DNA of 64,000 bases, from NCBI GenBank assembly GCA_024400755.1, contig JAKSMG010000003.1, positions 48,596-112,595 on the forward strand, given 5' to 3'. This document shows, one piece after another, positions 4,400-64,000 of the stretch. Made by a program: the position numbers and the translations under genes. The DNA is from Bacteroidales bacterium. Lineage in GTDB: Bacteria > Bacteroidota > Bacteroidia > Bacteroidales > WCHB1-69. The first letter of the stretch is position 1. Each line of letters begins with the position of its first letter. The notes under the pieces were generated by a model. The model made no database searches. It saw nothing but the letters and a program-made list of their open reading frames with translations, and had not been told where the DNA came from.

Positions 4400-6994
4400 T
4401 TATTTTACGCCGACCACTTTTTGCTTGTTCCATCGCTTACCTTGATGATTCCAAAAAGTAACTTTGACCACATATAATCCTGGAGTGACCAGATTCCCGT
4501 TATCATCTGTACCATCCCAGACACTGTACATCTCTGAACCACATAAAACATTGTCTTTCAATTTTCTAACCAATAATCCTTGGGAAGTATAGACCGATAA
4601 ACTGAGTCTGTTTTCCAAATCCGAAAACGTACAGAAAATTTCAGTATAGTCGTCAAATCCGTCATTGTCTGGTGAAAAAATTTCGGGTTGCACGGTTAGA
4701 TCATTTTTCTCCAAAAGGGCGGATGACATTTGAGAATTTTCGTAACCGGGCGTACCAAAATTCACATTGGCAGAAGCCGACTTCCAGCTTTGATCGTCCT
4801 GCGTATCACATTCATAACGAACACGTTCCAACGAAACACCATCCGTACTGGTCAGCATCTTATAGTGCATTTTCTCGTCATATTCAAATCTATCCAAATG
4901 ATTCAAAGATAAATCGGTCAAATGAACCGCGCCGTGGGAATTCGCATACGGCGGCAAAGAGTCACACTGTAAAAGCGTCTTTTTATCTAACGGATAATAA
5001 TGATTGTACGTCAATTGCTTATTTTTACACAATGCCACCATTTTTTGTGGAAACAATTGATAACCATCACTTTGTGCAATCGCAGTCTTTTCGGGCAATT
5101 CTCCCAAGCCGTTTCCAACCTTAATTTTCTTCAAGTCTATAATAAAAGATGAATTATTATAAATTTCAACATAATCCGCGTCTTCGTTTGAAGGAGAATC
5201 GAACAGTATCTCATTAATTATCAAATCATTATTGGAAGGAATCTCATCTATGCCAAACATAAGCATATTGCCCAACGGCAAAATATTGCCCGCACAATCA
5301 CACACGGAATCAATAATGGAAAGCTGGTAAACCGTTCCTTTACGCAATGACTTATCAAAAACAATGTCCACCGCATTATAAAAAGGTGTCACCATAGACA
5401 AAGACAGGACTTGCAAATCACGATCAACAGAAAACACCGGATGATAATGAATTAGAGAAACCGTTTCGGAAAAGAAAACCCTTATCTTGTTGGTATCCAA
5501 TACAGTTGCTGTTACCAACAAAGGAGATTCGTAATCAGGATTTACCGTTGCGATGGAATTGACACGGCCCGGTGTTCCGCCCATATCGTCAACGGAAGAA
5601 TCCCAATTTTCGCCATTTCCGCAGGGATTGTTGGCATCCATCATTTCCAGCGACCAACCACCCTCTTTTTTGACCGCCGTTCGATGCCAATCATTACTAA
5701 ACTTTATCGCATATATCACTTCATCATACGAATTATACAAAATTAGATCCTGCCCTCCATCCGTAATGCTCAAGGACGAAACGCCGACCGTATTTTCACA
5801 AAAATCACGCATAGCGGCCACATTATTTTCCGCCACGACCACCGCAAAACCACCTTGAGAAAGCAAAATCTCCGGCAAAGATTTCAGCGTTTTTCCCACC
5901 TGCAGTTTCCATCCCGACAAACGGACTTCCCCTTCCACCCTGTTTTGCAACTCTACATACTCCACGGCCGGCAACAAGACCGTGGGCATCGGATCGGCCA
6001 TTATTTCGCTGATGATCACATCATTCCTTTTGATTTTATGACAAAAAAAGGTCAATGTGGTATCTGCCATCACATTTCCTGCTAAATCACGAATGCCACT
6101 CACCTGCAACATATATCTCTGGTCTTCAACAAATTGATAGGGAAAGAAAAGCATCACCTGTCTATAATCAGGAAAAATATATTCACAAATTAGCGGACTG
6201 ACATCAATTCCGGGAATATGATAATGAACTGAACTTAACGCCGTTTCATCGACAATTTCAGAAAAAACAAGCGATACGGTTTGAAAATCATCATTCCCAT
6301 AACAAGACTGCAATACGGGGCAAATACTATCAATCAAAGCAGGACCAACATAGATATTGTCAAAAATGAACTTGTTCGCATTACTGCTGGTGTATTTACA
6401 ATAAATTCCTGCAAAATTTGCCTCCGTAGTCTTATCAAAAAACGTATCCACCTGCATTCGATACCAACCGATTTCCGAGTTGTCAATCCACAAACTCCAA
6501 CGATTTTCAACAGTTTTCAATATTTTTACCTGCAAGTCAAAATTATTGGCAATCATCGCATCAGGACCACGCATCACAGATGTGGTTTGACCATTTTCCA
6601 CATAAAACAACTCTATCGCGTCTTGCGCCAAATTTTCGCCAAATTGCAGATAAAATCCCGTCAAACTATCTGATTTTATATCCGCCACATTAGACAAAAG
6701 ATAAATTCTCGCAAAATTATTATTGGAAGGTGCGAAATCCAGTTTAATTTTGAAATACCATTCAATATCCTGATTCCACACCTCCAAACTATCTAACGAG
6801 AACACCACAGCAGATATTCCCGTTTGAGACGCATTTAACTGCAATTGATTGTTAGTGTTGATCTTAAAATCTGATGTATCTCCAATCCAGGGCGGATTAG
6901 CGGACAAATTGCCATCGGAAAAATCATCGTTTACCTGTGCGGAAAGCGTAATATTCACGCACAAACACATTAAAAGCCAAGCCATCTTTTTCAT
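4400..6994 (-). CDS. Large secreted protein with two lamin-tail-like (LTD) domains and a T9SS type-B C-terminal sorting domain
   Basis: The start is trimmed to ATG 6994 (MKKMAWLLMCLCVNITLSAQ signal peptide), because the tracked 6995-7207 extension overlaps asd and its promoter. LTD-like segments are IISEIMADPMP...YVELQN and LIINEILFDSPS...DYVEIYNNS. The C-terminus (IFSPDNDGFDDYTEIF...VWDGTDDNGNLVTPGLYVVKV) matches the gliding-motility/T9SS type-B CTD pattern. Confidence 0.7.
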   Translation of the reverse strand: MKKMAWLLMCLCVNITLSAQVNDDFSDGNLSANPPWIGDTSDFKINTNNQLQLNASQTGISAVVFSLDSLEVWNQDIEWYFKIKLDFAPSNNNFARIYLLSNVADIKSDSLTGFYLQFGENLAQDAIELFYVENGQTTSVMRGPDAMIANNFDLQVKILKTVENRWSLWIDNSEIGWYRMQVDTFFDKTTEANFAGIYCKYTSSNANKFIFDNIYVGPALIDSICPVLQSCYGNDDFQTVSLVFSEIVDETALSSVHYHIPGIDVSPLICEYIFPDYRQVMLFFPYQFVEDQRYMLQVSGIRDLAGNVMADTTLTFFCHKIKRNDVIISEIMADPMPTVLLPAVEYVELQNRVEGEVRLSGWKLQVGKTLKSLPEILLSQGGFAVVVAENNVAAMRDFCENTVGVSSLSITDGGQDLILYNSYDEVIYAIKFSNDWHRTAVKKEGGWSLEMMDANNPCGNGENWDSSVDDMGGTPGRVNSIATVNPDYESPLLVTATVLDTNKIRVFFSETVSLIHYHPVFSVDRDLQVLSLSMVTPFYNAVDIVFDKSLRKGTVYQLSIIDSVCDCAGNILPLGNMLMFGIDEIPSNNDLIINEILFDSPSNEDADYVEIYNNSSFIIDLKKIKVGNGLGELPEKTAIAQSDGYQLFPQKMVALCKNKQLTYNHYYPLDKKTLLQCDSLPPYANSHGAVHLTDLSLNHLDRFEYDEKMHYKMLTSTDGVSLERVRYECDTQDDQSWKSASANVNFGTPGYENSQMSSALLEKNDLTVQPEIFSPDNDGFDDYTEIFCTFSDLENRLSLSVYTSQGLLVRKLKDNVLCGSEMYSVWDGTDDNGNLVTPGLYVVKVTFWNHQGKRWNKQKVVGVK

Positions 6995-7034
6995 CGGATA
7001 GTAGATTAAGTTATTTTTTAGTTTATTGATTTTG

Positions 7035-7042
7035 CAAAAATA
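7035..7042 (-). promoter_or_regulatory. -7 promoter box (TATTTTTG) for the LTD/T9SS gene
   Basis: The plus strand reads CAAAAATA, 41 nt upstream of ATG 6994. It lies back-to-back with the asd box. Confidence 0.5.
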
Positions 7043-7043
7043 G

Positions 7044-7051
7044 TATCTTTG
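7044..7051 (+). promoter_or_regulatory. -7 promoter box (TATCTTTG) for asd
   Basis: TAnnTTTG lies 51 nt upstream of the asd ATG. Confidence 0.6.
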
Positions 7052-7101
7052 CAGAATAAAAAACATCGTTGTTAATAACTTTTTATAAATTTTGAAAGAA
7101 A

Positions 7102-8094
7102 ATGAAAATAGCATTAGTTGGAGCCACCGGATTAGTCGGAAGTGTAATGTTAAAGGTCTTGGAAGAACGCGGATTTGGGAGCAATGAACTGATTGCCGCC
7201 GCCTCATCGAAATCGGTAGGAAAGAAATTGACTTTCGCCGGTCGCGAAATCACCGTGATAAGTGTTGAGCAAGCCATTGCGGAGAAACCCGACATTGCTA
7301 TTTTTTCAGCAGGCAGTGGCGCTTCGTTGCAATATGCACCGCAATTTGCCGCCCAAGGCACCTACGTCGTGGACAATTCTTCGGCGTGGCGTTACGAGAA
7401 GCACATTCCACTTATCGTGCCGGAAATCAATGGTGACGTCATCACTGCCGACGACCACATCATCGCCAATCCCAACTGCTCTACCATTCAAATGGTTTTG
7501 GCCTTGGCTCCATTGCATAATCAGTTCAAAATCAACAGATTAGTTATTTCAACCTATCAATCTGTAAGCGGGACAGGAGTAAAGGCCCTCAACCAACTTT
7601 TCAAAGAAAGGGAAGGTCAAGACTGCGAGAAGGCATATCCTTACAGAATAGACTTAAATTTATTGCCTCACGGCGGCACATTTGAAGACAACGGCTACAC
7701 CACCGAAGAGATGAAACTGGTAAAAGAAACCCGCAAAATCCTTCGTGACGACAGCATTCGCATAACGGCCACCGTAGTTAGAGTTCCCGTCACGGGAGGA
7801 CACTCAGAAGCCGTAAACATTGAATTTGAAAAAGACTACGAACTATCGGACATTTATCGCTTATTGAACGAAATGCCCGGAATCAAAGTCATTGACAATC
7901 CTGCCAACAACGAATATCCAATGCCTTACTTCGCCAAGGACAAAGATGAAGTTTTCGTAGGGAGAATCCGACGTGACGAATCTCAAGAAAAGGCACTAAA
8001 CATTTGGGTTGTCGCCGACAATCTTCGCAAGGGTGCCGCCACCAATGCGGTTCAGATTGCCCAACTGCTTTGCCAAAAGGGATTTGTAAAATAA
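7102..8094 (+). CDS. asd: Aspartate-semialdehyde dehydrogenase
   Basis: Has an N-terminal Rossmann motif (VGATGLVGS) and the active-site region IANPNCSTI. Length is 330 aa. Confidence 0.92.
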   Translation: MKIALVGATGLVGSVMLKVLEERGFGSNELIAAASSKSVGKKLTFAGREITVISVEQAIAEKPDIAIFSAGSGASLQYAPQFAAQGTYVVDNSSAWRYEKHIPLIVPEINGDVITADDHIIANPNCSTIQMVLALAPLHNQFKINRLVISTYQSVSGTGVKALNQLFKEREGQDCEKAYPYRIDLNLLPHGGTFEDNGYTTEEMKLVKETRKILRDDSIRITATVVRVPVTGGHSEAVNIEFEKDYELSDIYRLLNEMPGIKVIDNPANNEYPMPYFAKDKDEVFVGRIRRDESQEKALNIWVVADNLRKGAATNAVQIAQLLCQKGFVK

Positions 8095-18549: not shown

Positions 18550-20589
18550 ATGAAAAAACACTTTACCCTTATTTTCACGTTATTCCTGCTTCTCCTCCAG
18601 ATTCCCGCCTCCGCCCAGGGCGAATGGAAGTGGGCCAACTACTGGACGGGCAACGACGACCTGTTGAATCCATCTCACGCATATAACTATGTGGTGCGCA
18701 CCGCCTTTGATGATGACGGAAACGTTTATGTTTTCGGCAGCTTTGGCGGAAATGCCTTTCTGTATGACCAAAACCAGGAAATCAGATTCTCCGACAATCC
18801 CATTATTGAGTCTAATAGTTCTCCAGGCAATGTTTTGGCAAAATTCAACGCGCAAGGTGACTTGCTTTGGTATAAGTTTATCAAAAGCACAAATGGCGAT
18901 TGTCTTCCGTATGATATGGTTATCAAAGACAGTGTCATTTTAATTGCTGGTGAATATAGTTGGACCTATGCTCTGAACAAACCGTTTTGGTTTTTTGACA
19001 CGCTTATCACAGTGCAAACAGCACTTTCATATGGGAATGGAGCCTACCAACCTCCATTCACTTTTGGCAATTACTCTTACTTTGTTTATTTTGACCCTAA
19101 TGGCGATATCATTCAAAAACATTTTGTACAAACCAAATCGAGAGAATGCTATGGGAATACGCATGCAATAGCTCCACTAGGAAGCAGGTTTATAGGAGGC
19201 TATCCTATTTGTATAGATAACGACAACAACATCTACATCGCAGTAAGTATGCAATACGAAGGCAATGAATCTGACCCTTACGGCATAATAATAGATTGTG
19301 ACACCGCAAATATGTATAACATATATTTGCCAGGCAACTATTGTGGTTTGTCTCTAAACAATATTATGTTATATAAATTCGCTCCAGATTGGAGGTTGGT
19401 TTGGGGGAAACCATTGGTCCATCATACCGAAGGATTGTCCCCTGCAATCCCCACAGATACGGTGAATCCAAGTTTTAGGCCTTTTGTCGGGGGTATGAGC
19501 ATTGATAATCATGGTAACCTCTATGTGTCTGGTTATTTAATGGATATGTGGATAACTGATCAATACAACCAATACCCAATGTATATTTATTGGGACAACA
19601 CACATCGTGCAATCATAGATGATCATGGGTTGGCATTTTGCCTGCCCTTTATAGTAAAATATGATTCTGCGGGAACGGTGCAATGGTCGAATCAGGCTTT
19701 TATGAAACACGCACCCACGGCGACATGGTACAATAAGATATACTGGACAGACAACTGTGTCACAGAAAACAGTGTTTATCTTTTGGGGGATACAAGAGTA
19801 TCAGAAGGTTATAGTTCTTTATTCTATTTTGACAATGAAAATAATGACATGGATATTTCCCAATCATCATGCTATTTTGTCAGATTTAATAGAGAAAATG
19901 GAGGTTTTGAAAACAGTGGGGTTTCCCCCGGCGAAAAAACTTGTTTTGGTTCAGGGGAAACAGCTAAGCCTGCTGTTGTTAACAATCATCTTTTATGCTT
20001 GTCCAAAGATTTTTTCAACAGATATTTCATTTTAGGACAATTCAATACGAATGGCACATTTAAAAAAGGAGATACGATTGTAAACAATAGTGGTACAATG
20101 TCCGCTAATCAAGGAATTGTCTTAAACGAAACGGGATATCTTTTGAATAGTTTTATTTCAACTCAAGACCTGACTTTCGGCAATGACCTCACCCTCAATT
20201 TTGACGACCACCAACACAGTCACGCTGTTGTCGCATTACGTTACGACCCGTCCATCTTGGAACCCTACCCCGAAGACTCCACGGGCATTGCAGACCGTGG
20301 AAGTCTTAGCCGTGCGGTGGTGCGCGCGTATCCCAATCCCACCACGGACAAGGTGACGGTGGAGGTGATGATGCCCCTTGAGGATGACGAAATCTATTTG
20401 GGAGACGTCACCACCAATTACAATATGGAGCGTGTCACGGTCACTGACCTCACGGGGAAAGTGGTCTTGCAGCGCGCCGTGAGCGGCACCCGTGCGGAAC
20501 TGGACTTCAGCGCCCTGCCCGCCGGCACCTACATCATCACCGCAAGCGGCGAGATGGGCCAGTGGGAAGGAAAGGTGGTGAAGAAGTGA
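18550..20589 (+). CDS. Secreted beta-propeller (SBBP-repeat-like) protein with T9SS type-A C-terminal sorting domain
   Basis: Has a signal peptide (MKKHFTLIFTLFLLLLQIPASAQ). D-x-x-G-N/D-x-Y motifs recur (DDDGNVYVFGS, NAQGDLLWYK, DPNGDIIQK, DNDNNIYIAVS, DNHGNLYVSGY, DSAGTVQWS). The last ~85 aa (AYPNPTTDKVTVEV...LPAGTYIITA...GKVVKK) fit the Por secretion tail pattern. Confidence 0.75.
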   Translation: MKKHFTLIFTLFLLLLQIPASAQGEWKWANYWTGNDDLLNPSHAYNYVVRTAFDDDGNVYVFGSFGGNAFLYDQNQEIRFSDNPIIESNSSPGNVLAKFNAQGDLLWYKFIKSTNGDCLPYDMVIKDSVILIAGEYSWTYALNKPFWFFDTLITVQTALSYGNGAYQPPFTFGNYSYFVYFDPNGDIIQKHFVQTKSRECYGNTHAIAPLGSRFIGGYPICIDNDNNIYIAVSMQYEGNESDPYGIIIDCDTANMYNIYLPGNYCGLSLNNIMLYKFAPDWRLVWGKPLVHHTEGLSPAIPTDTVNPSFRPFVGGMSIDNHGNLYVSGYLMDMWITDQYNQYPMYIYWDNTHRAIIDDHGLAFCLPFIVKYDSAGTVQWSNQAFMKHAPTATWYNKIYWTDNCVTENSVYLLGDTRVSEGYSSLFYFDNENNDMDISQSSCYFVRFNRENGGFENSGVSPGEKTCFGSGETAKPAVVNNHLLCLSKDFFNRYFILGQFNTNGTFKKGDTIVNNSGTMSANQGIVLNETGYLLNSFISTQDLTFGNDLTLNFDDHQHSHAVVALRYDPSILEPYPEDSTGIADRGSLSRAVVRAYPNPTTDKVTVEVMMPLEDDEIYLGDVTTNYNMERVTVTDLTGKVVLQRAVSGTRAELDFSALPAGTYIITASGEMGQWEGKVVKK

Positions 20590-25043: not shown

Positions 25044-25802
25044 ATGAAAAAAACATTCCTTTCCATAATTCTCGTGACCGCAATTTCCGCATTTTGCCTA
25101 ACATCCTGCCATAAAGCGTCCTATCCTTCCACCGCGGAAGTCATTAAAGATGCCGTTACAGACTATGACGGCAATAAGTATGACGCGGTGAAAATCGGAG
25201 ACCAGGTTTGGATGGCTTCCAACTTGAAGACCAAACATTTTGCAAACGGCACAGAAATTCCGGAAAGCAAAACCACAGACTTAACCTCTGCAATGCGATA
25301 CAAACCCAAATGCACCAACAGTCAACTTCCCGATTTTGGCTTCTTATATAACTGGGAAGCGGCCGTAAATGGTGCCAAACCCAGTGCCAACTCCAATGAA
25401 AAAGTTCAAGGTGTTTGTCCTGACGGTTGGCATATTCCTACTTTGGCAGAATGGAAAAGTCTGATTTCTTACTTGGAAAGTGACAAGAAATATCAATCAG
25501 GAGACTCGTGTGCCAACATTGGCAAGGCTTTGGCTTCACAGAGCAATTGGAAAAGCTGCGGTACCGCCCACAGTGTAGGAAATCGTCCCGCCAGCAACAA
25601 TGCCACCGGCTTTACGGCAATGCCTGCCGGAACCTATTTCGGAACAAGTTTTTCCACCGGTGAATACGCCTATTTCTGGAGTGCCACTCCTTACGACAGC
25701 ACTTACGCCTACGGCACCTACTTATTTTATCGCTTTACCAATGCGACTACCAGTTTTGCCAACAAAGGGGACGGTTTTTCGGTACGTTGCGTGAAAGATT
25801 AG
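25044..25802 (+). CDS. Single-domain FISUMP (Fibrobacter succinogenes major paralogous domain) lipoprotein
   Basis: Has a lipobox (FCLTSC). The ordered family motifs are DGNKYDAVKIGDQVWMASNL, LYNWEAA, GVCPDGWHIPTLAEW, GKALAS..NW, GFTAMPAG, YFWSAT and GFSVRCVKD. Confidence 0.8.
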   Translation: MKKTFLSIILVTAISAFCLTSCHKASYPSTAEVIKDAVTDYDGNKYDAVKIGDQVWMASNLKTKHFANGTEIPESKTTDLTSAMRYKPKCTNSQLPDFGFLYNWEAAVNGAKPSANSNEKVQGVCPDGWHIPTLAEWKSLISYLESDKKYQSGDSCANIGKALASQSNWKSCGTAHSVGNRPASNNATGFTAMPAGTYFGTSFSTGEYAYFWSATPYDSTYAYGTYLFYRFTNATTSFANKGDGFSVRCVKD

Positions 25803-42052: not shown

Positions 42053-42056
42053 AATT

Positions 42057-43943: not shown

Positions 43944-45083
43944 TTAAAATTTTCTTCTTACCAAGTCACAAAGTGATAAATACGCCGAGGAAGTTGAATC
44001 CCAAAAATACTGCTTTTTCAGGCCTTCCATAATGTCAAAGGCCTCTTCAATATCCTGACAATTATTCAACGTTTGAATGGCACGACTAAATTCTTCACTC
44101 TTATTTTTGAACAACTCCCTAATAAACAAAAATTTATCATTAATCGTCATGGCCTTGGTCAAATCCACAACCTTTTTCTGCTGAAATTTGTCACCAAGCG
44201 AATTTTCCCTTTTCTGCTCATTAAACAAATCGTTGAGCGAACGCTGTTGCGGTTTTTCAGCGGCCGGAACTACTTCAACTTGCTGTGCCGGCTTGGGTTC
44301 TGGGATAGCCGGTTTTGCCTCCGGTTTCACCACTACCTGCTTATCTTCCTGCATAGTCGGCTTAGGTTCCGATTTTGCAGGTTCTTCAACTTTAGGTTTG
44401 ATTTCGGGAATTTCCATTTTAGGTTCTGAAACCGTAACTTTATGACTATCAACTTGTTTAACCTCTGGCTTAACTTCTAGTTTAACCTCTGTTTTGGGCT
44501 CCGGTTTAACTTCTGGTTTAGGCACTGGCTTAACTTCTGGCTTGGGCTCCGGTTTAACCTCTGGCTTGGGCTCTGGTTTTGCTTCTACCTTTGCTTCCGT
44601 CTTTACCACCGGCTGGCTTTTTGTTTCCACTTTAGGTTGTGGCGTAAGAAATTGCAGAATATCCGAATCCATCTCGTCAAGATCTTCTACCTGCGGTTTC
44701 TCACTTTTTATGGAAATTTTTTCAACGACAGGTTTTTCTTCCTTACGAGGAACCTCCACTTGCGGCTCAACTTTCTTTTCAACAACCGGCGATTTTTCAA
44801 CAGCAGGCGTTTCCTTAACTAGCGACACAGGTTGAACCGGCATAACAGTGGGCTTGGTTTCCATCACCGCCATTTCCTTCTTTTCCGTTTCCGGCTTAGG
44901 ATTGATTTCCGGTTTTTGAACCGTTGGAACACTACTCACCTGATTTCTCAAAATCAGCAAATAGGCTTCGCGAAGATTTTGAAGCACGATATCCTTTTCA
45001 ATTTGAGAAAAATCACTCTTACTGTTCTTGATAAGCGTAAGATTATCAATGATTTGATTTAATAATTCGTCCTTATTCTGCAT
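43944..45083 (-). CDS. Hypothetical protein with central Pro/Glu/Lys/Val-rich repeat region
   Basis: Has structured N- and C-terminal regions flanking about 200 aa of low complexity, including KPEPKPEVKPEPKPEVKPVPKPEVKPEPK. The start is either ATG 45083 or ATG 45134, and promoter spacing favours 45083. Confidence 0.55.
   Translation of the reverse strand: MQNKDELLNQIIDNLTLIKNSKSDFSQIEKDIVLQNLREAYLLILRNQVSSVPTVQKPEINPKPETEKKEMAVMETKPTVMPVQPVSLVKETPAVEKSPVVEKKVEPQVEVPRKEEKPVVEKISIKSEKPQVEDLDEMDSDILQFLTPQPKVETKSQPVVKTEAKVEAKPEPKPEVKPEPKPEVKPVPKPEVKPEPKTEVKLEVKPEVKQVDSHKVTVSEPKMEIPEIKPKVEEPAKSEPKPTMQEDKQVVVKPEAKPAIPEPKPAQQVEVVPAAEKPQQRSLNDLFNEQKRENSLGDKFQQKKVVDLTKAMTINDKFLFIRELFKNKSEEFSRAIQTLNNCQDIEEAFDIMEGLKKQYFWDSTSSAYLSLCDLVRRKF
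44467..44598. repeat. Eleven tandem 12-nt units inside the Pro/Glu/Lys-rich CDS
   Basis: Plus-strand units read GGCTTAACTTCT / AGTTTAACCTCT / GTTTTGGGCTCC and so on. They encode (K/E)PEV-type tetrapeptides on the minus strand. Confidence 0.8.
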
Positions 45084-45122
45084 AATAAAAAACTTCTTCG
45101 AGGAATAATCCCGATAATTTAT

Positions 45123-45130
45123 TAATTTTG
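45123..45130 (+). promoter_or_regulatory. -7 promoter box (TAATTTTG) for tdk
   Basis: TAnnTTTG lies 58 nt upstream of ATG 45188. Confidence 0.5.
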
Positions 45131-45147
45131 CCATTTGAAAAAGCGTT

Positions 45148-47796: not shown

Positions 47797-47839
47797 AGGA
47801 AAAACAATGAAATATAAAAAAATGCAACATTAAAAATAT

Positions 47840-48004
47840 CGGAATTAGCACCTTTCTTCTTGTAACGAGATTTCAACTTCGCTATGGTTCGTCGGAATGG
47901 CGACGAACCATTAGGCAAGAAGTGGCGGCGACGGAAAGCAACTGCGATATTGTTCGGACACGGTATCGCCGCAAACATTTCAACAAGATTAAACGAGATA
48001 ATCC
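47840..48004 (+). repeat. Structured interspersed repeat, copy C
   Basis: Collinear with copy B over its full length. It has a perfect 10-bp hairpin (ATGGTTCGTC-GGAATGGC-GACGAACCAT) and degenerate termini. Confidence 0.75.
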
Positions 48005-48041
48005 AGACAAAAAATGACAACTTTGCAAGACGGATAAGGTA

Positions 48042-48049
48042 TAATTTTG
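48042..48049 (+). promoter_or_regulatory. -7 promoter box (TAATTTTG) for the giant FISUMP gene
   Basis: TAnnTTTG lies 80 nt upstream of ATG 48129. Confidence 0.45.
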
Positions 48050-48128
48050 AAAAATATTATTTATAATTGCAAAATCAAGTTTATTATTGAGAAAAGATAT
48101 AAAGCATTATAAATTAGAAAGTTAAATA

Positions 48129-51100
48129 ATGAAAAAACTATTATGCTGTGTGCTTTTCGCACTATTTCTACTTCCATTGGCTGTAATGGGTCAGTACGGA
48201 ACTGAAAATCTGACAGCACAGGATGCTGAAGGTCACACCTTCAGTTCCGTGAAAGTGGGTCCTCACTGCTGGTTGAAACCCAACCTTTCAATCAAGCTGG
48301 ACAGCAGTAAAATCTACAAATCGGAGATGTATCCCGACACAGATGCCAACCTGGCCACTTTCGGTCGTTTGTACAACTGGTACACGGCCATGAATGTGCA
48401 GCCCGGACAAAGCCCCGTGGTCGGCGAACACGGCTTCGTGCAAGGTATCTGCCCCGAGGGGTGGCACCTTCCTACCGAAGCTGAAACCCGTGAACTGATG
48501 AACTATGACGCCAAAACGCTACACGCCACAGAGCATTGGTTCGTACCCGGTACCAACACCACTGGCTTCACCATGCTTCCCGGCGGTTACTACAACGCCA
48601 TGAAGAAATATGGCGAAAACTTGGGCGGTGACTGCTATATGTGGTCCGCACAGAGTCTGGATCCCTCCAACCCGACCGTGATCTGGTCCGACTGCCACTG
48701 TGAATATTTCTTGGTGAACAGGGGTTCAGCCGTCAATGGCATGTCGGTACGCTGCGTGTATAAAATTTACCAGGGCGAGATAACTACCGACTCTGTAAAA
48801 GAAATCACCGACCAATCCGCCACGCTTTATGGAACGGTTGCCTTCAGTGGCTATGACGAAGAATACGAACGCGGCTTCGTGTATGGTACCAATCCCAACA
48901 ACCTGGATCAATGGGCAGTGGAAAGCTCAACGGCTTCTGAGGAGACAGCTCCTTTCAACAAGGAAATCACGGGCTTAACCGTTGCAACTACTTACTATTA
49001 TCAGGCCTATATCATCAATGATTTCGACACCGCCTGGGGAGAAATAAAGGACTTCAAAACACTACAAATGCAGGTTACCACCGACAGTGCCAACAATATC
49101 ACGCATTATACTGCCACTTTGCATGGCACCTTAACCCATTTGTCATACCCCAGCGTGAATGTCGGCTTCAAGTACGGCACAAGCGAAGATGCACTGACTT
49201 TTATTTCAGAAGTTGAGTCTCGTAATACCACAGGTCAATATTCGGCAAATCTCAACGGACTTACCGAAGGAACCACCTATTTTTTCAAGGCTTTCACAGC
49301 CAATGGAACTGACACCGTTTATGGCGAAGTGAAGAGTTTCATCACAAAGGATATAGCAGTGGCAACAAACGCTGCCACCGACATAAGAAGCACTGCCGCC
49401 ACATTGAACGGAGAGTTGACAATACTCAAGGGTTATGAAAATGCCAATGTCGGTTTCCGCTACGGACAGTATAAAGATTATATGGTATTCTTTGCTGATG
49501 AACAACCTATGACCAGCACGGGACCATTTGCCTTTGACTTATCAGACATTTCACCCAACACGACCTACTACTTCCAGGCCTACGCCTACAACGGCACCGA
49601 CACCGCCTGGGCAGCCGATACCTTAGACTTCACTACACCAACCGTTCCTTGCCTGGGTGCAGTAAGAGCCAACGAGCGCGGTACCACCGATGCTATCGAC
49701 TCCGTATTAGACGTTGATGGAAGCGCATATATTACCGTTCAAATCGGCGACCAGTGCTGGATGGCCCAGAACCTGAGGACGACGAAATATGCCGACGGCA
49801 CCTCCATTTCCTTGGGCAGCACCACGAGCACAGAAACAGCTTATCACTACTATCCCACCGGCAGCAGTAGCAACGTGAGCAAGTACGGTTATCTGTACAA
49901 TTGGAAGGCGGTGATGGGCAACTCCACCAGCAGTGAAACTAACCCCAGCGGAGTGCAGGGCATCTGTCCTAAAGGCTGGCACGTGCCGAGCGATACGGAG
50001 TGGACACAGCTGACCAACTACGTAAGCAGTCAGAGCGAGTACGTGTGCGAAAGTATCAACACTTACAACGCCAAGGCGTTAGCCTCAACCACGGGGTGGA
50101 ACAGCAGCTCAAACACTTGTGTCCCAGGCAACAATCCGTCAGACAACAACGCCACGGGTTTTTCTGCTGTTCCTGCGGGCTACTACAGCGGCAGCTACGG
50201 CAGTTTCGGCGACGACGCGCACTTTTGGTCGGCTACCCAATACTATAATAGCTACGCCTACTCCCGCTACGTGGACTACAACTACGCAGACGTGCACAAG
50301 TACAACTACGAGGAGTACTACGGATTCAGTGTCCGCTGCCTCCGTGATCCAATGACCGTTACCACCGACAGTGCAACTGCCGTGACGAAAGAATCCGCCA
50401 CCTTGAACGGAACGGTGAAGAGTTTGGGTAAATATACCGAAGTGAAAGCCGGATTCAAGTATGGGCAATCTGCTAAAATGATGGTGTTTAAGACAGAAGA
50501 AACAAGTAAGGATACAATTGAAGCATACAGTGCCAACCTTAATTCCTTGGCTCCCAATACCACCTATTTCTATCAGGCATACGTTTGTACTCCAGGTGAT
50601 ACCGTTTATGGTAACATACTAAATTTCACCACACCGACTGTTCCTTGTCTGGTTACTCCAAGACAAAATGAACGTGGTGTCTCTAATGCCATCGATTCTG
50701 TAATAGATAATGAAGGCAACCACTATATTGTCGTTCAAATCGGCCGACAGTGCTGGATGGCCCAGAACCTGCGCTGCACTAAGAGCCCGAGACAAGGTAC
50801 GGGAGCTGGACAGATTGACCTGAAACTTGGCGGATCAAATTATAATAATTTCCAACCCTATTATTATGCTCCATCTAAAGCACACGTTGCCACTTATGGG
50901 TACCTGTACAACTATCCTGCCGTGGTTGATACGATGGGTAGTGTTACTGCAATGCCGACAAAGATTCGCAGGGGTATCTGTCCTGAAGGTTGGCATGTGC
51001 CAAGTGACGGAGAATGGTTTGAATTGGAGAAAGAAGTAATGGGTATGACGACGGCAGACAGCGCGACAAATGGAGGATATAGAGGTAGTGGTGTCGGTAA

Positions 51101-54100
51101 GTTAACGGGAGGTTATGATATTTGGCCTGTTAATGTTTCGGCAACGACTTCAACTCCTGAGAATTATTCTTATGAAAATCGTAACAGCAGCGGTTTTTCA
51201 GCACTTCCGGGTGGTGATATAAAAGAGGGCTCACTCATAAATGTTGGTGGATATGCGTATTTTTGGAGTGCGACTTCGGCATCTTCAACGAAAGCCTGGA
51301 GTAGAACTTTTATGCATAGCAAGGAGGGTTCTTATCGTAATGATTATGATCGTAGCCGTGGGTACTCCGTTCGTTGCGTGCGAGACACAACGGCTATTAC
51401 CACCGACAGTGCCAACACCATCACCAAGAACAGTGCCAAGTTGCACGGCAATGTGATTTCTTTGGGTTATACCGAAATGAAAGTCGGTTTCCGCTACGGA
51501 CAGCAACCGAACCAGATGACTATCAACGCTGAAAAGGCAGATGCGATTACGGCCGCAGGACCCTACAATGTGGATTTGACAACCCTTGCTCCCAACACAA
51601 CCTATTATTTCCAAGCATACGCCTGCAACGGCACCGATACCGTCTGGGCAGCCGATATCTTAGACTTCACAACGCCAATCGCTCCTTGTTTGGGTACACC
51701 TAACGCCAACGAACACGGCACAACAAATGCTATCGACGCCGTTACCGATTACCAGGGCAACAGCTACCTCACCGTTCAAATCGGCAACCAATGCTGGATG
51801 GCTCAGAACCTGAGGACGAAAGTGGGAGAAAAAACCGATGGTGATTTCGGTTATCCTACAACCGGTAATGACACAATAACCTACGGTCATCTATACTCCT
51901 GGAATGCCGTCACGAAGGGCGCTTCCACGACTTATCCTATGAATGCGACAGATACATTGGTACACGGCATTTGCCCGGCAGGTTGGCACGTACCGAGTGC
52001 CAATGAGTGGGACACGCTGACCTATTGTGTATATTATAGCACAAATCCCGATTACAAATGTTCTGGATGCAGCTCTGAAAGTTGGACACAAAATACACCT
52101 TGTATCGCCAATGCCTTGGCTTCAGTCACCGGTTGGATTAGTAGTAGCACAATCGAATGCAGTGCCAGCAATATAAGCGACAAATCGAATGCCACCGGCT
52201 TTGCAGCTATTCCTGCCGGCCACTACACCAACAAATTCTTCGAATTCGGCACCAACGCCTACTTCTGGAGTGCTACCGAAAAAACGAATACAGCATGGTG
52301 TAGGTATATATCCAGTTCCGAATCCTACGTGAACAGCAAAGTCAATAGCAAGAATAATACCGGCTATTCCGTCCGCTGTCTCCGCGATCCAATGATTGTT
52401 ACCTCCGACAGCGTTACCACCGTTACCAAAAACAGCGCCAAGTTATACGGCAATGTGATTTCTTTGGGTAAATATACCGAAGTGAAAGCCGGTTTCCGTT
52501 ACGGACAACACTCGAACTATATGACCTTCAAGGCTGAAAGGGCCAACGCGATTACGACTGCGGGTTCATATAATATTGATTTATCAACCCTTGCTCCTAA
52601 CACCACCTACTATTTCCAGGCCTATGCCTGCAACGGCACCGACACCGTCTGGGCAGCCGATACCTTGAACTTTACTACACCGACTGTTCCTTGTCTAGGT
52701 ACTCCAAAACAAAATGAACGTGGTGTTTCTACTGCCATCGATTCTGTAATAGATAATGAAGGCAACCACTATATTGTCGTTCAAATCGGCCGACAGTGCT
52801 GGATGGCCCAGAACCTGCGCTGCACTAAGAGCCCGAGACAAGGTACGGGAGCTGGACAGATTGACCTGAAACTTGGCGGATCAAATTATAATAATTTCCA
52901 ACCCTATTATTATGCTCCATCTAAAGCACACGTTGCCACTTATGGGTACCTGTACAACTATCCTGCCGTGGTTGATACGATGGGTAGTGTTACTGCAATG
53001 CCGACAAAGATTCGCAGGGGTATCTGTCCTGAAGGTTGGCATGTGCCAAGTGACGGAGAATGGTTTGAATTGGAGAAAGAAGTAATGGGTATGACGACGG
53101 CAGACAGCGCGACAAATGGAGGATATAGAGGTAGTGGTGTCGGTAAGTTAACGGGAGGTTATGATATTTGGCCTGTTAATGTTTCGGCAACGACTTCAAC
53201 TCCTGAGAATTATTCTTATGAAAATCGTAACAGCAGCGGTTTTTCAGCACTTCCGGGTGGTGATATAAAAGAGGGCTCACTCATAAATGTTGGTGGATAT
53301 GCGTATTTTTGGAGTGCGACTTCGGCATCTTCAACGAAAGCCTGGAGTAGAACTTTTATGCATAGCAAGGAGGGTTCCTATCGTAATGATTATGATCGTA
53401 GCCGTGGGTACTCCGTTCGTTGCGTGCGCAATCTGGAACCTATTTCCGTCACTACCGATAGTGCCAACAACGTTGCCAGTACCGAAGTCCGTCTGCACGG
53501 CAATGTAACCTCTTTGGGTACATACAACAATGTGTATGCCGGTTTCAAGTACGGCACAAGCGAAAGCACACTTACTTCCATCGCTACTGTCGAATCTGTA
53601 ATAACCACTACCGGCAGATTTAGCTGCGACATTACTGGTCTTTCCGCCAATACCCAGTATTATTTCAAGACCTTTGCTGCCAACGGCACCGACACGGTAT
53701 ATGGCGAAGTGAAGAACTTCAAAACGCTATCCTTTTGCCCCAATACTCCCACCGTTACCGATATTGACAACAACATATATAACACGGTGCAGATAGGGCA
53801 GCAGTGCTGGATGAAAGAGAACTTGCGGACAACGAGGTTTGCCGACGGCACCCCCATCTCCTTGGGCAACAGCAAGAGCACCTCTACGGCCTACCGCTAC
53901 TATCCCAACAATGACAGCAATACTGTGAGCACATACGGTTACCTGTACAACTGGAGGGCAGCGATGCGCTACTCCTCCTCTTCAGAGAACAATCCCAGCG
54001 GGGTGCAGGGCATCTGCCCCACGGGCTGGCACTTACCGAGCGATGCGGAATGGACGCAACTGACCGATTATGTGAGCAGCCAAAGCCAATATCGATGCGA

Positions 54101-54407
54101 TGATAATACTGACTACATATCCAAGTCATTGGCCGCCACTTCAGGTTGGAGACAGGACTATTTCGCTTGTGCTATTGGCAACTATCAATTCCTCAACAAC
54201 GCCACGGACTTTTCAGGTGTTCCTTCGGGCGACTACGCCGGCGACTACGCTCTTTTCGCCAACAGTGCCTACTTTTGGTCAACTACCAAACCCGCTAACG
54301 ATCATAACGACGCCTTCATCCGCCTCTTGTACTACAACTCCGAACGCATGTTAAGAAACCACAACCCCATTGACTTCGGATATGGTGTTCGTTGCCTCCG
54401 TAACTAA
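48129..54407 (+). CDS. Giant secreted modular protein with six FISUMP domains interleaved with seven Ig-like modules
   Basis: An uninterrupted 2092-codon ORF with a signal peptide (MKKLLCCVLFALFLLPLAVMGQ). FISUMP motif sets (QIG.QCWMAQNL, YGYLYNW, GICP.GWH.PS..EW, GFSA.PAG, YFWSAT, GYSVRC.R) recur at approximately 48.2-48.77, 49.65-50.35, 50.64-51.38, 51.68-52.39, 52.69-53.43 and 53.73-54.40 kb. They are separated by ~95-aa modules of the form TTDSA..IT...A.L.G...LG......GF.YG..........TTYY.QAY..NGTDTV. Confidence 0.85.
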   Translation: MKKLLCCVLFALFLLPLAVMGQYGTENLTAQDAEGHTFSSVKVGPHCWLKPNLSIKLDSSKIYKSEMYPDTDANLATFGRLYNWYTAMNVQPGQSPVVGEHGFVQGICPEGWHLPTEAETRELMNYDAKTLHATEHWFVPGTNTTGFTMLPGGYYNAMKKYGENLGGDCYMWSAQSLDPSNPTVIWSDCHCEYFLVNRGSAVNGMSVRCVYKIYQGEITTDSVKEITDQSATLYGTVAFSGYDEEYERGFVYGTNPNNLDQWAVESSTASEETAPFNKEITGLTVATTYYYQAYIINDFDTAWGEIKDFKTLQMQVTTDSANNITHYTATLHGTLTHLSYPSVNVGFKYGTSEDALTFISEVESRNTTGQYSANLNGLTEGTTYFFKAFTANGTDTVYGEVKSFITKDIAVATNAATDIRSTAATLNGELTILKGYENANVGFRYGQYKDYMVFFADEQPMTSTGPFAFDLSDISPNTTYYFQAYAYNGTDTAWAADTLDFTTPTVPCLGAVRANERGTTDAIDSVLDVDGSAYITVQIGDQCWMAQNLRTTKYADGTSISLGSTTSTETAYHYYPTGSSSNVSKYGYLYNWKAVMGNSTSSETNPSGVQGICPKGWHVPSDTEWTQLTNYVSSQSEYVCESINTYNAKALASTTGWNSSSNTCVPGNNPSDNNATGFSAVPAGYYSGSYGSFGDDAHFWSATQYYNSYAYSRYVDYNYADVHKYNYEEYYGFSVRCLRDPMTVTTDSATAVTKESATLNGTVKSLGKYTEVKAGFKYGQSAKMMVFKTEETSKDTIEAYSANLNSLAPNTTYFYQAYVCTPGDTVYGNILNFTTPTVPCLVTPRQNERGVSNAIDSVIDNEGNHYIVVQIGRQCWMAQNLRCTKSPRQGTGAGQIDLKLGGSNYNNFQPYYYAPSKAHVATYGYLYNYPAVVDTMGSVTAMPTKIRRGICPEGWHVPSDGEWFELEKEVMGMTTADSATNGGYRGSGVGKLTGGYDIWPVNVSATTSTPENYSYENRNSSGFSALPGGDIKEGSLINVGGYAYFWSATSASSTKAWSRTFMHSKEGSYRNDYDRSRGYSVRCVRDTTAITTDSANTITKNSAKLHGNVISLGYTEMKVGFRYGQQPNQMTINAEKADAITAAGPYNVDLTTLAPNTTYYFQAYACNGTDTVWAADILDFTTPIAPCLGTPNANEHGTTNAIDAVTDYQGNSYLTVQIGNQCWMAQNLRTKVGEKTDGDFGYPTTGNDTITYGHLYSWNAVTKGASTTYPMNATDTLVHGICPAGWHVPSANEWDTLTYCVYYSTNPDYKCSGCSSESWTQNTPCIANALASVTGWISSSTIECSASNISDKSNATGFAAIPAGHYTNKFFEFGTNAYFWSATEKTNTAWCRYISSSESYVNSKVNSKNNTGYSVRCLRDPMIVTSDSVTTVTKNSAKLYGNVISLGKYTEVKAGFRYGQHSNYMTFKAERANAITTAGSYNIDLSTLAPNTTYYFQAYACNGTDTVWAADTLNFTTPTVPCLGTPKQNERGVSTAIDSVIDNEGNHYIVVQIGRQCWMAQNLRCTKSPRQGTGAGQIDLKLGGSNYNNFQPYYYAPSKAHVATYGYLYNYPAVVDTMGSVTAMPTKIRRGICPEGWHVPSDGEWFELEKEVMGMTTADSATNGGYRGSGVGKLTGGYDIWPVNVSATTSTPENYSYENRNSSGFSALPGGDIKEGSLINVGGYAYFWSATSASSTKAWSRTFMHSKEGSYRNDYDRSRGYSVRCVRNLEPISVTTDSANNVASTEVRLHGNVTSLGTYNNVYAGFKYGTSESTLTSIATVESVITTTGRFSCDITGLSANTQYYFKTFAANGTDTVYGEVKNFKTLSFCPNTPTVTDIDNNIYNTVQIGQQCWMKENLRTTRFADGTPISLGNSKSTSTAYRYYPNNDSNTVSTYGYLYNWRAAMRYSSSSENNPSGVQGICPTGWHLPSDAEWTQLTDYVSSQSQYRCDDNTDYISKSLAATSGWRQDYFACAIGNYQFLNNATDFSGVPSGDYAGDYALFANSAYFWSTTKPANDHNDAFIRLLYYNSERMLRNHNPIDFGYGVRCLRN
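50631..51382 (+). repeat. Intragenic near-identical repeat, copy 1 (FISUMP module 3)
   Basis: Matches 52677-53428 at an offset of exactly 2046 bp. I found 6 mismatches by eye, 5 of them in the first ~70 nt, plus T/C at 51326/53372. The stretch 50697-51325 is identical to 52743-53371. Confidence 0.9.
52677..53428 (+). repeat. Intragenic near-identical repeat, copy 2 (FISUMP module 5)
   Basis: See copy 1. The track's identical off-frame ORFs 50827-51039 and 52873-53085 independently confirm the identity. Confidence 0.9.
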
Positions 54408-54460
54408 GTTGGGTTGAGGGGTTAGAACTGCTTTCAACACACATACAATAGATTCATACA

Positions 54461-54497
54461 GGGGCTTTGTGCGATTTCGTGCGAAGCCCCCTTTTTT
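54461..54497 (+). terminator. Rho-independent terminator of the giant gene
   Basis: A 13-bp stem including G:T pairs (GGGGCTTTGTGCG-ATTT-CGTGCGAAGCCCC), followed by CTTTTTT. Confidence 0.8.
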
Positions 54498-54699
54498 AGA
54501 GTTTAGGAGAAAGAATGTAGGATAGAGGAATAACATATTAATCTCTTAATTCTAAAGTCTAAAGTCTAATCCCTTAACTGACAAAATATTTCTTTGGATG
54601 GCAAAGAAAGCAACGGGAAAATTAGGTATGCAGATTAAACTAACAAAGCCCCAAAAACTAAAATTTTTCTTCGTCAGTGTGTAATTCAAGAATTTTGTG

Positions 54700-54707
54700 T
54701 AGATTTG
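54700..54707 (+). promoter_or_regulatory. -7 promoter box (TAGATTTG) for pepE
   Basis: TAnnTTTG lies 60 nt upstream of ATG 54767. Confidence 0.5.
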
Positions 54708-54766
54708 CATTTTATTATATGGTCTTTTATTTACATAATTAAGATTAATCATCAAAATAATATCAA

Positions 54767-55519
54767 ATGAAACTCTTATTAATCAGTAACTCAACAAATT
54801 ATAAAGAAAAATATTTAGGATGGTGCATGCCTTTGATCGCTGACTTCCTGAAAAATGAAAAGAAAAATATTTTATTTTTCCCTTATGCCGGTATCAATAT
54901 TGGTGGCAAAGCCTATCCCGCAAGCTATGACGCCTATACCGAAAGGGTGCAGAATGTATTCAAGGATTTTGGTTTCAATGTAACTTCCATCCATACCGCC
55001 AAGTGTCCGATTGAAGCGGTGAACAATGCCGATGTCATTATGGTGGGTGGCGGCAACACGTTTCATTTGGTGGCAGAACTGCATAAGTATAAATTGATTG
55101 AGCCCGTGCGTCGCAAGGTGTTGGAAGGCACTCCGTTTTTGGGCTGGAGCGCCGGCTCCAACGTGGCTTGCCCCACTTTGCGTACTACCAACGATATGCC
55201 TGTGGTGATGCCTGAAAGCTTCAACTGCTTCGATTTTGTGCCTTTCCAAATCAATCCTCATTATGTGGATCCTTATCCAGAAAACGTGAACGATGCCATC
55301 CGCCACGGCGGCGAAACGCGTCAGGTGCGTATCGAGGAATTTCTCGCTGTCAATCAGCAGATTACCGTAGCTGGATTGCGTGAAGCCACTGCGTTGTGGG
55401 TAGAAAACGACCGCATCACCTTGAAGGGTGAACGCCCGATGCGCGTGCTCAAGTTCGGTCAGGAACCTCGCGAAATTCAACCTGGAAGTACTTTTGACTT
55501 TGCCTTAAACCTTAAATAG
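54767..55519 (+). CDS. pepE: Dipeptidase E (S51 alpha-aspartyl dipeptidase)
   Basis: Contains MKLLLISNS, GGGNTFHL and the nucleophile region GWSAGSN. Confidence 0.85.
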   Translation: MKLLLISNSTNYKEKYLGWCMPLIADFLKNEKKNILFFPYAGINIGGKAYPASYDAYTERVQNVFKDFGFNVTSIHTAKCPIEAVNNADVIMVGGGNTFHLVAELHKYKLIEPVRRKVLEGTPFLGWSAGSNVACPTLRTTNDMPVVMPESFNCFDFVPFQINPHYVDPYPENVNDAIRHGGETRQVRIEEFLAVNQQITVAGLREATALWVENDRITLKGERPMRVLKFGQEPREIQPGSTFDFALNLK

Positions 55520-55541
55520 TAATCAACAAAAACAATAAATT

Positions 55542-56525: not shown

Positions 56526-56527
56526 CC

Positions 56528-57586: not shown

Positions 57587-57650
57587 ATTATTTTTTCTAA
57601 AATAATAGTAAAAAGTTATCAACATTTAATGCTGGTTCAAATACTTTTTG

Positions 57651-57658
57651 TATTTTTG
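57651..57658 (+). promoter_or_regulatory. -7 promoter box (TATTTTTG) for ssb
   Basis: TAnnTTTG lies 25 nt upstream of ATG 57683. Confidence 0.6.
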
Positions 57659-57682
57659 CATCGAACTTAAAAATTAAACGAT

Positions 57683-58129: not shown

Positions 58130-58136
58130 TCCACAT

Positions 58137-58165
58137 AAGGGCGATAACAATTCGCCCTTTTTTGT
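58137..58165 (+). terminator. Rho-independent terminator of ssb
   Basis: AAGGGCGA-TAACAAT-TCGCCCTT, followed by TTTTG. Confidence 0.8.
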
Positions 58166-58212
58166 TCCCGAAATTTATTGATATTCCTTTTAAAATATAG
58201 TTGATTTTTATG

Positions 58213-58220
58213 TATTTTTG
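58213..58220 (+). promoter_or_regulatory. -7 promoter box (TATTTTTG)
   Basis: TAnnTTTG lies 19 nt upstream of ATG 58239. Confidence 0.55.
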
Positions 58221-58238
58221 CTACAAAATCAAAAATCT

Positions 58239-59366: not shown

Positions 59367-59371
59367 AAGCG

Positions 59372-59379: not shown

Positions 59380-59407
59380 CCAAAGAATTCACATAAAAAC
59401 ACCTATA

Positions 59408-62879: not shown

Positions 62880-64000
62880 TTATTGTTTTATGATTTTTAT
62901 ATTTTGATGATTAACTTGAAGAATGTATAATCCGTTTGTAAATTCTTGAATATCAAATTGATAATTATCATTATTGATTATTTCGCGCCGTAATTCCTGC
63001 CCAAAAGCGTTGTAAAGTACAGCGGTTTTTCCATTTTGTCCTGAAACCATGAATTGATTTTGGCAAGGATTGGGATAAACCCGCAAATTATTCAAATTAA
63101 AATCAGTTATTGCATCGGGAGTCCCATGAATTGCGGAAGTATCGCCATGTAGGACGGCCACACCGGATAAATCAAAACCGCCTGATGCAAAAGGGGTTGG
63201 GTATGGATCATTGATTAAGCGGCCGTTCTTGTCGCGACTGCCGTATTGCGGGTCGATACTGCCCACCACGTCAATCAGTTTCACATGCGTAATGTTGTTG
63301 ATGTCGAGTTCAACGCTGTCTTGCAATTCCTCTAAATCGAAAGGAGTTCCGTAGCCAACACGATACTTTCCAGCCAAATTATTGATAAGACGGGCATCTA
63401 CACTGCCGGCATTATTAATTTGCGTATCAATTTGCGTATTTGAAGTAGCGGGAAAACGATAATAATGAATGCCGTCGGAGCTGACTTCCACAAAAGCCAA
63501 TTCCAAAAACACATCATTGAGGGAATTTTCAAAAACGGCAAAGTCATAGCCTTCCCCATTGATAATAGGCGTTTCAAAGGTGAGGATGGCAACACCACCA
63601 TCACCCAAACTGACAGCGTCCGCCGTAGAAGTGGAAGCCGGTCCGACACCTGCGCTTTCAGAACCGTATGAAGTCAATAACCCTCCTGTCGCAATATCTT
63701 GATAACCACGACTAATTACACAAGACGTTGCCCACGCTAAAATTCTTGAATCTTGATAATATATTGCCTGACAGCCTTCCGAACCCACCGGGCCATCAAA
63801 AGTATTGGTATCGGTTGGAACATCGGGAGGATCAATAGGTCCAACAGGAGGGGTATTCGGATCGCTGACGGCAATAATGTTGGCCGGAGTTGTGCAATTG
63901 CCCCATTCCTGCATTTCGAAAAAGTCCCCGTCATGCAGATAGTCGTCCAAGCCCATCGCCCAATTGCCATTATACGTATATGTCAAACTGCCAGCCGAAA
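62880..64000 (-). CDS. Secreted protein with T9SS type-A C-terminal sorting domain (5' end beyond the window)
   Basis: The reading frame remains open to position 64000, and the track start at 63986 is an internal TTG. The C-terminal ~80 aa (LRVYPNPCQNQFMVSG...GLYILQVNHQNIKIIKQ) fits the Por secretion tail. The stop lies 1 nt before the receptor start. Confidence 0.6.
   Translation of the reverse strand, partial: SAGSLTYTYNGNWAMGLDDYLHDGDFFEMQEWGNCTTPANIIAVSDPNTPPVGPIDPPDVPTDTNTFDGPVGSEGCQAIYYQDSRILAWATSCVISRGYQDIATGGLLTSYGSESAGVGPASTSTADAVSLGDGGVAILTFETPIINGEGYDFAVFENSLNDVFLELAFVEVSSDGIHYYRFPATSNTQIDTQINNAGSVDARLINNLAGKYRVGYGTPFDLEELQDSVELDINNITHVKLIDVVGSIDPQYGSRDKNGRLINDPYPTPFASGGFDLSGVAVLHGDTSAIHGTPDAITDFNLNNLRVYPNPCQNQFMVSGQNGKTAVLYNAFGQELRREIINNDNYQFDIQEFTNGLYILQVNHQNIKIIKQ

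Follow-up and report, generated by a model that had tools for sequence, protein, structure and literature searches.

In Fibrobacterota and Bacteroidota, few extracytoplasmic domains of unknown function are as abundant as FISUMP (TIGR02145/PF09603), a family with neither a solved structure nor a known ligand. Its usual form is a single-domain lipoprotein of about 200-400 aa, as in the about 50-120 paralogues per Fibrobacter genome. Here we describe a gene located on a 64,000-nt stretch of a Bacteroidales genome (contig JAKSMG010000003.1, positions 48,596 to 112,595; the whole stretch is called the window below), which codes for a 2,092-aa protein with six FISUMP domains in tandem, hereafter the giant. 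It shares with the single-domain lipoproteins the domain family, the Cys/Trp core and a presumed extracytoplasmic location, but its domains are mounted on spacers with a predicted Fn3 fold, its sequence is a mosaic, and its signal is of the signal-peptidase-I type instead of a lipobox. We propose, with moderate confidence, that it is an exported multivalent binding protein that presents five surface types and diversifies by module exchange and gene conversion. A single-domain FISUMP lipoprotein of 252 aa, with lipobox LTSC and Cys22, is also present in the window (25044..25802, + strand; Pfam E 1.3e-39).

The mannose receptor family comprises animal receptors with 8-10 tandem C-type-lectin-like domains. 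The giant would resemble them in placing tandem lectin-like domains of different specificity in one exported polypeptide; the analogy is one of layout, as there is no detectable sequence relationship, and the giant has Fn3 linkers and no transmembrane anchor. The closest structural counterpart is the Legionella pneumophila adhesin Lcl, whose C-terminal domain (Lcl-CTD; 8q4e) gave the best, although weak, structural match (E 0.13) and belongs to a Pfam family that the FISUMP modules match weakly. In Lcl, a C-type-lectin-like domain sits on an elongated stalk and the protein acts as an adhesin for sulphated glycosaminoglycans (PMC11162425); some relatives of the giant carry collagen repeats, as Lcl does. 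Whereas Lcl has one domain per chain, without disulfides, and acquires its valency by collagen trimerisation, the valency of the giant would stem from the covalent linkage of six modules that differ in sequence and contain disulfides. Finally, the “category d” proteins of diversity-generating retroelements (DGRs), which contain DUF1566, DUF823 or Fib_succ_major domains and are exemplified by Legionella LdtA, belong to the same superfamily and are likewise variable at the C-terminal end of the domain, with DUF1566 and Fib_succ_major forming one class of DGR-diversified ligand-binding domains (PMC5758913, PMC4159848). The giant differs from them in that neither a reverse transcriptase nor a template repeat was found in the window, and in that it appears to vary by whole-module exchange and gene conversion instead.

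The open reading frame (ORF) extends from 48129 to 54407 on the + strand, starts with ATG, and remains uninterrupted for 2,092 codons over 6.3 kb; its product, MCQ2270038.1 (locus tag MJZ52_02265), is annotated as “hypothetical protein”. Two family hidden Markov models (HMMs) matched it in six stretches each, with PF09603 (Fib_succ_major) reaching 633.1 bits (cut-off 33.9, E 8e-192) and TIGR02145 reaching 586.9 bits (cut-off 41.65), and all of 27 isolated FISUMP modules were matched by the family HMM. The original prediction, made from the sequence alone, that one ORF holds six complete FISUMP domains was thus borne out, as was its count of seven Ig-like modules of about 95 aa, which we located as spacers of about 95-99 aa with the pattern TTDSA...TTYY.QAY and which are predicted to fold as Fn3. 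Module borders were drawn from motif positions and from an HMM built on the giant's own modules, giving the order SP-F1-I1-I2-I3-F2-I4-F3-I5-F4-I6-F5-I7-F6, where SP is the signal peptide, F a FISUMP module and I a spacer (Table 1). Not every FISUMP module is preceded by Ig-like modules, as had been supposed, since F1 directly follows the signal peptide. F3 and F5 are indeed near-identical (98% protein identity), but F4 does not stand apart as had been thought: its identity to F2 is 53%, and that of F6 to F2 is 54%. We also agree that the feature amounts to one gene and does not represent a system: the giant is monocistronic, has housekeeping neighbours and a terminator of its own, and has no partner conserved across 77 related loci.

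Table 1. Modules of the giant FISUMP gene and its flanking signals (positions in the window).
Feature	Position	Strand	Remarks
Candidate Bacteroidetes-type promoter	48022..48049	+	read by eye, about 80 nt 5' of the ATG
Signal peptide	48129..48191	+	aa 1-21; predicted signal peptidase I cleavage VMG/QYG
FISUMP F1	48192..48770	+	aa 22-214; short type, 35-37% identity to other modules
Fn3-like spacers I1-I3	48771..49646	+	aa 215-313, 314-409, 410-506
FISUMP F2	49647..50351	+	aa 507-741; Tyr-rich variable surface
Fn3-like spacer I4	50352..50642	+	aa 742-838
FISUMP F3	50643..51389	+	aa 839-1087; basic variable surface, near-identical to F5
Fn3-like spacer I5	51390..51683	+	aa 1088-1185
FISUMP F4	51684..52391	+	aa 1186-1421; 10 Cys
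Fn3-like spacer I6	52392..52688	+	aa 1422-1520
FISUMP F5	52689..53435	+	aa 1521-1769; gene-conversion partner of F3
Fn3-like spacer I7	53436..53732	+	aa 1770-1868; best Pur_ac_phosph_N match of the giant
FISUMP F6 and stop codon	53733..54407	+	aa 1869-2092; protein terminus ...GVRCLRN, then stop
Intrinsic-terminator-like hairpin and T run	54461..54500	+	13-bp stem, 8 G-C pairs

The same gene was found in an independent ENA assembly, where contig k141_381591 (404 kb, locus L001) contains a 97%-identical ORF (P0001) whose length is likewise exactly 2,092 aa. Synteny is kept as well, cinA, pfkB, sufE and tk lying to one side of the ORF and pepE, gldB and ssb to the other. In this copy F3 and F5 differ at 14 residues, indicating that they are two real copies. 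A more distant orthologue, in horse-faeces MAG121 (locus L002), is 49% identical and 2,137 aa long; it preserves the same order of 13 modules (F-iii-F-i-F-i-F-i-F-i-F), with one additional inserted repeat domain as compared with the window's protein.

At the DNA level, the segment 50625-51389 is repeated 2,046 nt downstream with 8 mismatches, which are located at its edges, and a 645-nt exact run, and the edges of this F3/F5 repeat are sharp at module borders. The substitutions K917E and H919Y, by which the strains can be told apart, are present in both the F3 and the F5 copies of the sister strain, and the consensus of the window's F3 and F5 follows P0001-F3 as far as residue 980 and P0001-F5 from residue 997 on. 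The shared strain substitutions, together with the switch between residues 980 and 997, are the hallmark of intragenic gene conversion between F3 and F5. Differences from the 97%-identical strain cluster in F1, F5 and F6, with 15 non-synonymous and 5 synonymous codon differences in F6, while no amino acid difference is found in I3-F2-I4.

Individual modules of the giant also have very different histories of similarity. F2 is closest in the L002 orthologue to module 4 and not to module 2 (92-93% protein and 94.2% DNA identity), and F6 matches module 6 there at 88-89% protein and 90.3% DNA identity, so that two modules of the giant are almost unchanged in a horse-faeces bacterium; F1 and module 1 share 58% protein and 66.8% DNA identity, and none of the spacers exceeds 65% protein identity between the two proteins. 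The 5' part of the gene is very similar to P0003, a paralogue from the same genome, with F1 98% and I1 91% identical, after which the two sequences diverge. For F3/F5, no relative with more than 47% identity was found among 240 proteins. The G+C content at third codon positions (GC3) is 0.37 in F3/F5 versus 0.65-0.70 in F1, F2 and F6 (0.70 in F2). We compared window positions 48058-61437 with a locus of a closely related MAG (L005; JAZLHE010000077.1, 1-9030), in which PepE is 98% identical, and found that the orthologue there retains the unit of promoter, F1 and I1 at 85% DNA identity, followed by a different module array.

Judged from base composition, a foreign-origin signal is present at the level of modules, with GC3 ranging from 0.37 to 0.70. 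Transfer of the gene as a whole was considered and rejected, as its G+C content of 0.48 versus about 0.41 in the surroundings is mostly a second-codon-position effect: G+C at second codon positions is 0.48 in the giant against 0.27-0.43, and its raised G+C content therefore reflects amino-acid content. An invertible cassette was also considered, as the L005 orthologue adjoins pepE in the opposite orientation on a contig that ends inside the gene; however, no inverted or direct repeat of at least 10 nt linking the flanks of the giant gene was found, and the window contains no inverted repeat of at least 50 nt, and a site-specific switch was accordingly rejected. Tentatively, the gene may belong to a retroelement-independent, recombination-driven repertoire of lectin-like binding modules, a possibility on which we place rather little weight. 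In such a repertoire, FISUMP cassettes cut exactly at module borders would move between paralogues and between species of gut Bacteroidales, the 5' unit of promoter, signal peptide, F1 and I1 would be common to paralogues, and gene conversion would set the valency, as in F3=F5. By analogy, this would be comparable to the swapping of receptor-binding domains in phage fibres or to antigenic-variation cassettes, serving here a multivalent adhesin. If general, module exchange would constitute a second diversification route of the lectin-like fold beside DGRs.

We sought structural relatives of the modules by modelling. An AlphaFold2 model of I3-F2-I4 had a predicted local distance difference test score (pLDDT) of 90.3, and in a Foldseek search its flanks matched tandem FNIII proteins (E about 1e-8, probability 1.00), in accord with weak fn3 and Pur_ac_phosph_N Pfam matches on the giant. 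All seven spacers are thus predicted with high confidence to fold as Fn3. Since the Fn3 flanks dominated the matches of the three-domain model, F2 was also modelled separately (pLDDT 93.8, predicted template modelling score 0.91). No Foldseek match to a solved structure was obtained for F2 at E <=0.001, and the weak top matches were nearly all C-type-lectin-like, with Lcl-CTD at the head of the list, followed by the C-terminal domain of Bd2740, snaclecs (snake-venom lectins), CD72, the carbohydrate-recognition domain CRD-4 of the mannose receptor, and the fimbrial protein 4eps. Searches of PDB sequences, with a single module or a 27-sequence profile, yielded no match even at E 10. The only other Pfam family of note matched by FISUMP modules is Lcl_C (DUF1566, PF07603), which scores 36.6 bits on the whole giant against a cut-off of 34.9, with no single stretch significant, and matches 5 of the 27 isolated modules at E <=0.01 (best E 5.7e-7). 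These matches weakly suggest that FISUMP and the C-type-lectin-like DUF1566/Lcl_C domain are distant relatives. Lcl-CTD binds glycosaminoglycans (PMC11162425), and is itself devoid of the Ca2+- and sugar-binding motifs of C-type lectins. A PHROGs scan of three FISUMP modules and one spacer returned no family; phage proteins with the same fold exist.

In the module alignment, C39, C109 and C233 are invariant and C4 is nearly so, and each module has 5-10 Cys residues, suggesting extracytoplasmic disulfides. The core of Cys, Trp, Gly and Pro residues is conserved, in contrast to the last 50 or so residues before the SVRC motif, which are hypervariable, with a column entropy of 2.7-2.9 bits versus about 1.1. 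Variable segments within the giant differ from each other in charge and aromatic content: the F2 segment is acidic and has 14 Tyr in 50 aa, and those of F3 and F5 are basic. The predicted Fn3 spacers and the possible distant relationship to Lcl_C agree with the earlier suggestion that the layout resembles a multivalent lectin or adhesin. Five variable surfaces on one conserved scaffold would also make a ready-made panel for glycan-array and structural work.

We envisage the following course of events. The gene would be transcribed from its own putative promoter to its own terminator, and the product would leave the cytoplasm through Sec, with signal peptidase I cutting behind Gly21 so that Gln becomes the N-terminal residue. 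In its extracytoplasmic location, the six FISUMP modules, stabilised by disulfides, would fold as divergent C-type-lectin-like domains spaced by seven Fn3 domains, and their variable segments of about 50 residues would form five surfaces, namely F1, the Tyr-rich and acidic F2, the basic F3=F5, which occurs two times, F4 and F6. Together these could engage several ligands simultaneously and so gain avidity. The most likely ligand is a glycan, and the protein would serve as an adhesin or agglutinin. The repertoire would change by recombination and not by a retroelement, with the sequence comparisons showing exchange of whole modules between paralogues and species and homogenisation of F3 and F5 by intragenic gene conversion.

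The N-terminus of the giant, MKKLLCCVLFALFLLPLAVMG/QYG (the slash marks the predicted cleavage site), has no lipobox on inspection, and in relatives the junction reads ...LPLAVMG/QCG or ...A/QT. Such G/Q or A/Q junctions fit the signal-peptidase-I “Q-rule” of Bacteroidetes. The giant lacks the lipoprotein signal that FISUMP proteins are reported to carry as a rule at the N-terminus, a feature that belonging to the domain family does not demand. Neither a Por_Secre_tail/TIGR04183 nor a CHU_C tail was detected on it in Pfam and NCBIfam scans, and its C-terminus is a FISUMP domain. The organism uses a type IX secretion system (T9SS), as the window codes for three likely T9SS cargo proteins (18550..20589, +; 62880..63986, -; 4400..7207, -), two with Por_Secre_tail and one with CHU_C, lamin-tail and Big_5 domains; gldB is present as well. 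With these cargo proteins serving as positive controls, the earlier description of a signal peptide without lipobox or T9SS tail was upheld, and we concur that a signal of the signal-peptidase-I type leaves the route to the surface unclear. Codon 23 (48195-48197) specifies Tyr in the window's protein, and Cys (QCG) in the 97%-identical strain, in P0003 and in most relatives; by this comparison, the Tyr is a strain-specific loss of a conserved F1 Cys. Many related giants (P0006, P0020 and others) begin with a conserved head of about 230 aa that is absent from the window's protein, and near the N-terminus of this head (residues ~80-150) there is a Por_Secre_tail-like match of 26 bits against a cut-off of 27.

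The near-perfect internal repeat of about 750 nt, and the fact that related contigs often break within such genes, as does L005, raise the question of whether paralogous FISUMP genes were collapsed or chained into a false ORF by the assembly. We reject this: an independently assembled 404-kb contig holds a syntenic, 97%-identical ORF of equal length in which F3 and F5 differ at 14 positions, the 49%-identical orthologue has the same 13-module order, and the frame stays open over 6.3 kb. A DGR variable protein, in which the C-termini of FISUMP modules would be mutagenised from a template repeat, could be invoked because Fib_succ_major and DUF1566 are a recognised class of DGR targets (PMC5758913, PMC4159848, PMC11661182) and because the variable segment occupies the C-terminal end of each module, and yet it is the least credible of the explanations considered: a Pfam scan of 42 window ORFs, which did not extend to the remainder of the genome, detected no reverse transcriptase, nothing resembling a template repeat for a module end was found in the window outside the gene, and the differences between F3 and F5 are not adenine-specific.

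Cellulosomal scaffoldins, such as CipA, are built of tandem cohesins. The giant is likewise an exported protein with repeated binding modules and Ig-like or linker spacers, from a fibre-degrading gut community, and its FISUMP modules might accordingly serve, as “cohesin analogues”, to dock enzymes or other proteins, the six together assembling a multi-enzyme complex on plant fibre. TIGR02145 was indeed proposed as a cellulose-binding or cohesin-like module and as a possible cohesin analogue in Fibrobacteres (PMC4704652), relatives of the giant come almost only from herbivore guts, and a match to the spacer type was also obtained with the N-terminal module of the BT0360 arabinanase model. However, the Pfam scan of the giant gave no cohesin or dockerin match, neither a carbohydrate-active enzyme nor a conserved partner occurs near the giant or in the 77 related loci, no enzyme partners are known, and the predicted fold is lectin-like, unlike the cohesin jelly-roll, so that we find a scaffoldin-like platform improbable. 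Only slightly more plausible, and still unlikely, is a periplasmic or envelope protein that is never exposed at the surface and binds, for instance, the cell's own peptidoglycan, lipopolysaccharide or capsule precursors. It would account for a signal-peptidase-I signal without lipobox or T9SS domain in an organism that has T9SS cargo and GldB, but 13 domains in a row would make a very long protein for the periplasm, adhesin, collagen-like and protease domains of the sort typically seen in extracellular proteins occur in relatives, and diversification at the level of modules is typical of proteins that face outward.

Multi-FISUMP proteins are far from rare, contrary to what had been assumed. 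A word-indexed search gave 724 matches at E <=1e-10, and the best 120 of them are 1,190-3,597 aa long with 2-11 FISUMP modules each, most with an alternating spacer-FISUMP pattern and most ending in a FISUMP domain. A profile of 27 modules run against 1.84 billion cluster representatives retrieved 78,271 FISUMP proteins; the best 150 of these all have at least three matched stretches, 49 have at least six, the maximum is 12, and the longest reach 7,786 aa. Where the source is named, it is nearly always an uncultured member of the Bacteroidales from the rumen, reticulum, omasum, horse faeces, deer or reindeer, and in a few cases from the human gut. The giant's own assembly (GCA_024500545.1) harbours at least three more multi-FISUMP giants, P0003 (MJZ52_04340; 1,804 aa, six FISUMP modules), P0026 and P0072. 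In relatives, the same modules occur together with Cleaved_Adhesin, DUF2436, collagen, C10 peptidase and LRR domains. In the literature searched there is no study of tandem multi-FISUMP forms, and the word FISUMP is not used. The possibility raised at the outset, that such forms are common and already characterised, thus holds in its first half and fails in its second, and the giant belongs to a large and so far unstudied class, the tandem Fn3-FISUMP proteins of herbivore-gut Bacteroidales, and is no isolated curiosity. Its modules could show how these uncultured bacteria attach to fibre, mucus or microbes.

The candidate promoter consists of TTTG at 48022-48025 and TAATTTTG (TAnnTTTG) at 48042-48049, separated by a 16-nt spacer; the consensus is that of Bacteroides promoters, in which the spacer is typically longer. 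The terminator-like hairpin (54461-54490), a strong one, begins 54 nt past the stop codon and is followed by a T run. Upstream of the giant lie cinA, which is divergently oriented, a pfkB-family kinase gene, sufE and the thymidine kinase gene, and downstream are a peptidase S51 gene (pepE), a dihydroorotate (DHO)-dehydrogenase-like gene, gldB and ssb. No generally conserved neighbour or secretion partner was found near FISUMP giants in the 77 related loci. At 6-8 of the 77 loci, including L013, L014, L016, L018, L034, L037, L044 and L050, the FISUMP gene adjoins genes that encode a 520-aa protein with an FGE-sulfatase domain, a Ser/Thr protein kinase of 572 aa and a 190-aa protein of unknown family, a cluster that is absent from the window.

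An intergenic repeat of about 150-180 nt is present in the window in three copies on the + strand (31014-31190, 42051-42229 and 47833-48011) that are 82-86% identical, the third of which sits between cinA and the candidate promoter of the giant. Its predicted fold has three hairpins, including a GGCGGCG...CGCCGCC stem, and the repeat matched no Rfam family. The segment immediately 3' of the second copy (42230-42335) has a counterpart upstream of the orthologous giant in L005. In addition, a gene at 43944..45134 (-) codes for a 396-aa protein without a Pfam match, which has a PEVK-like array (KPEPKPEVKPEPKPEV...), and the gene contains a tandem 12-nt repeat at 44435-44602; the L001 orthologue is 371 aa long, indicating repeat-length polymorphism of this protein.

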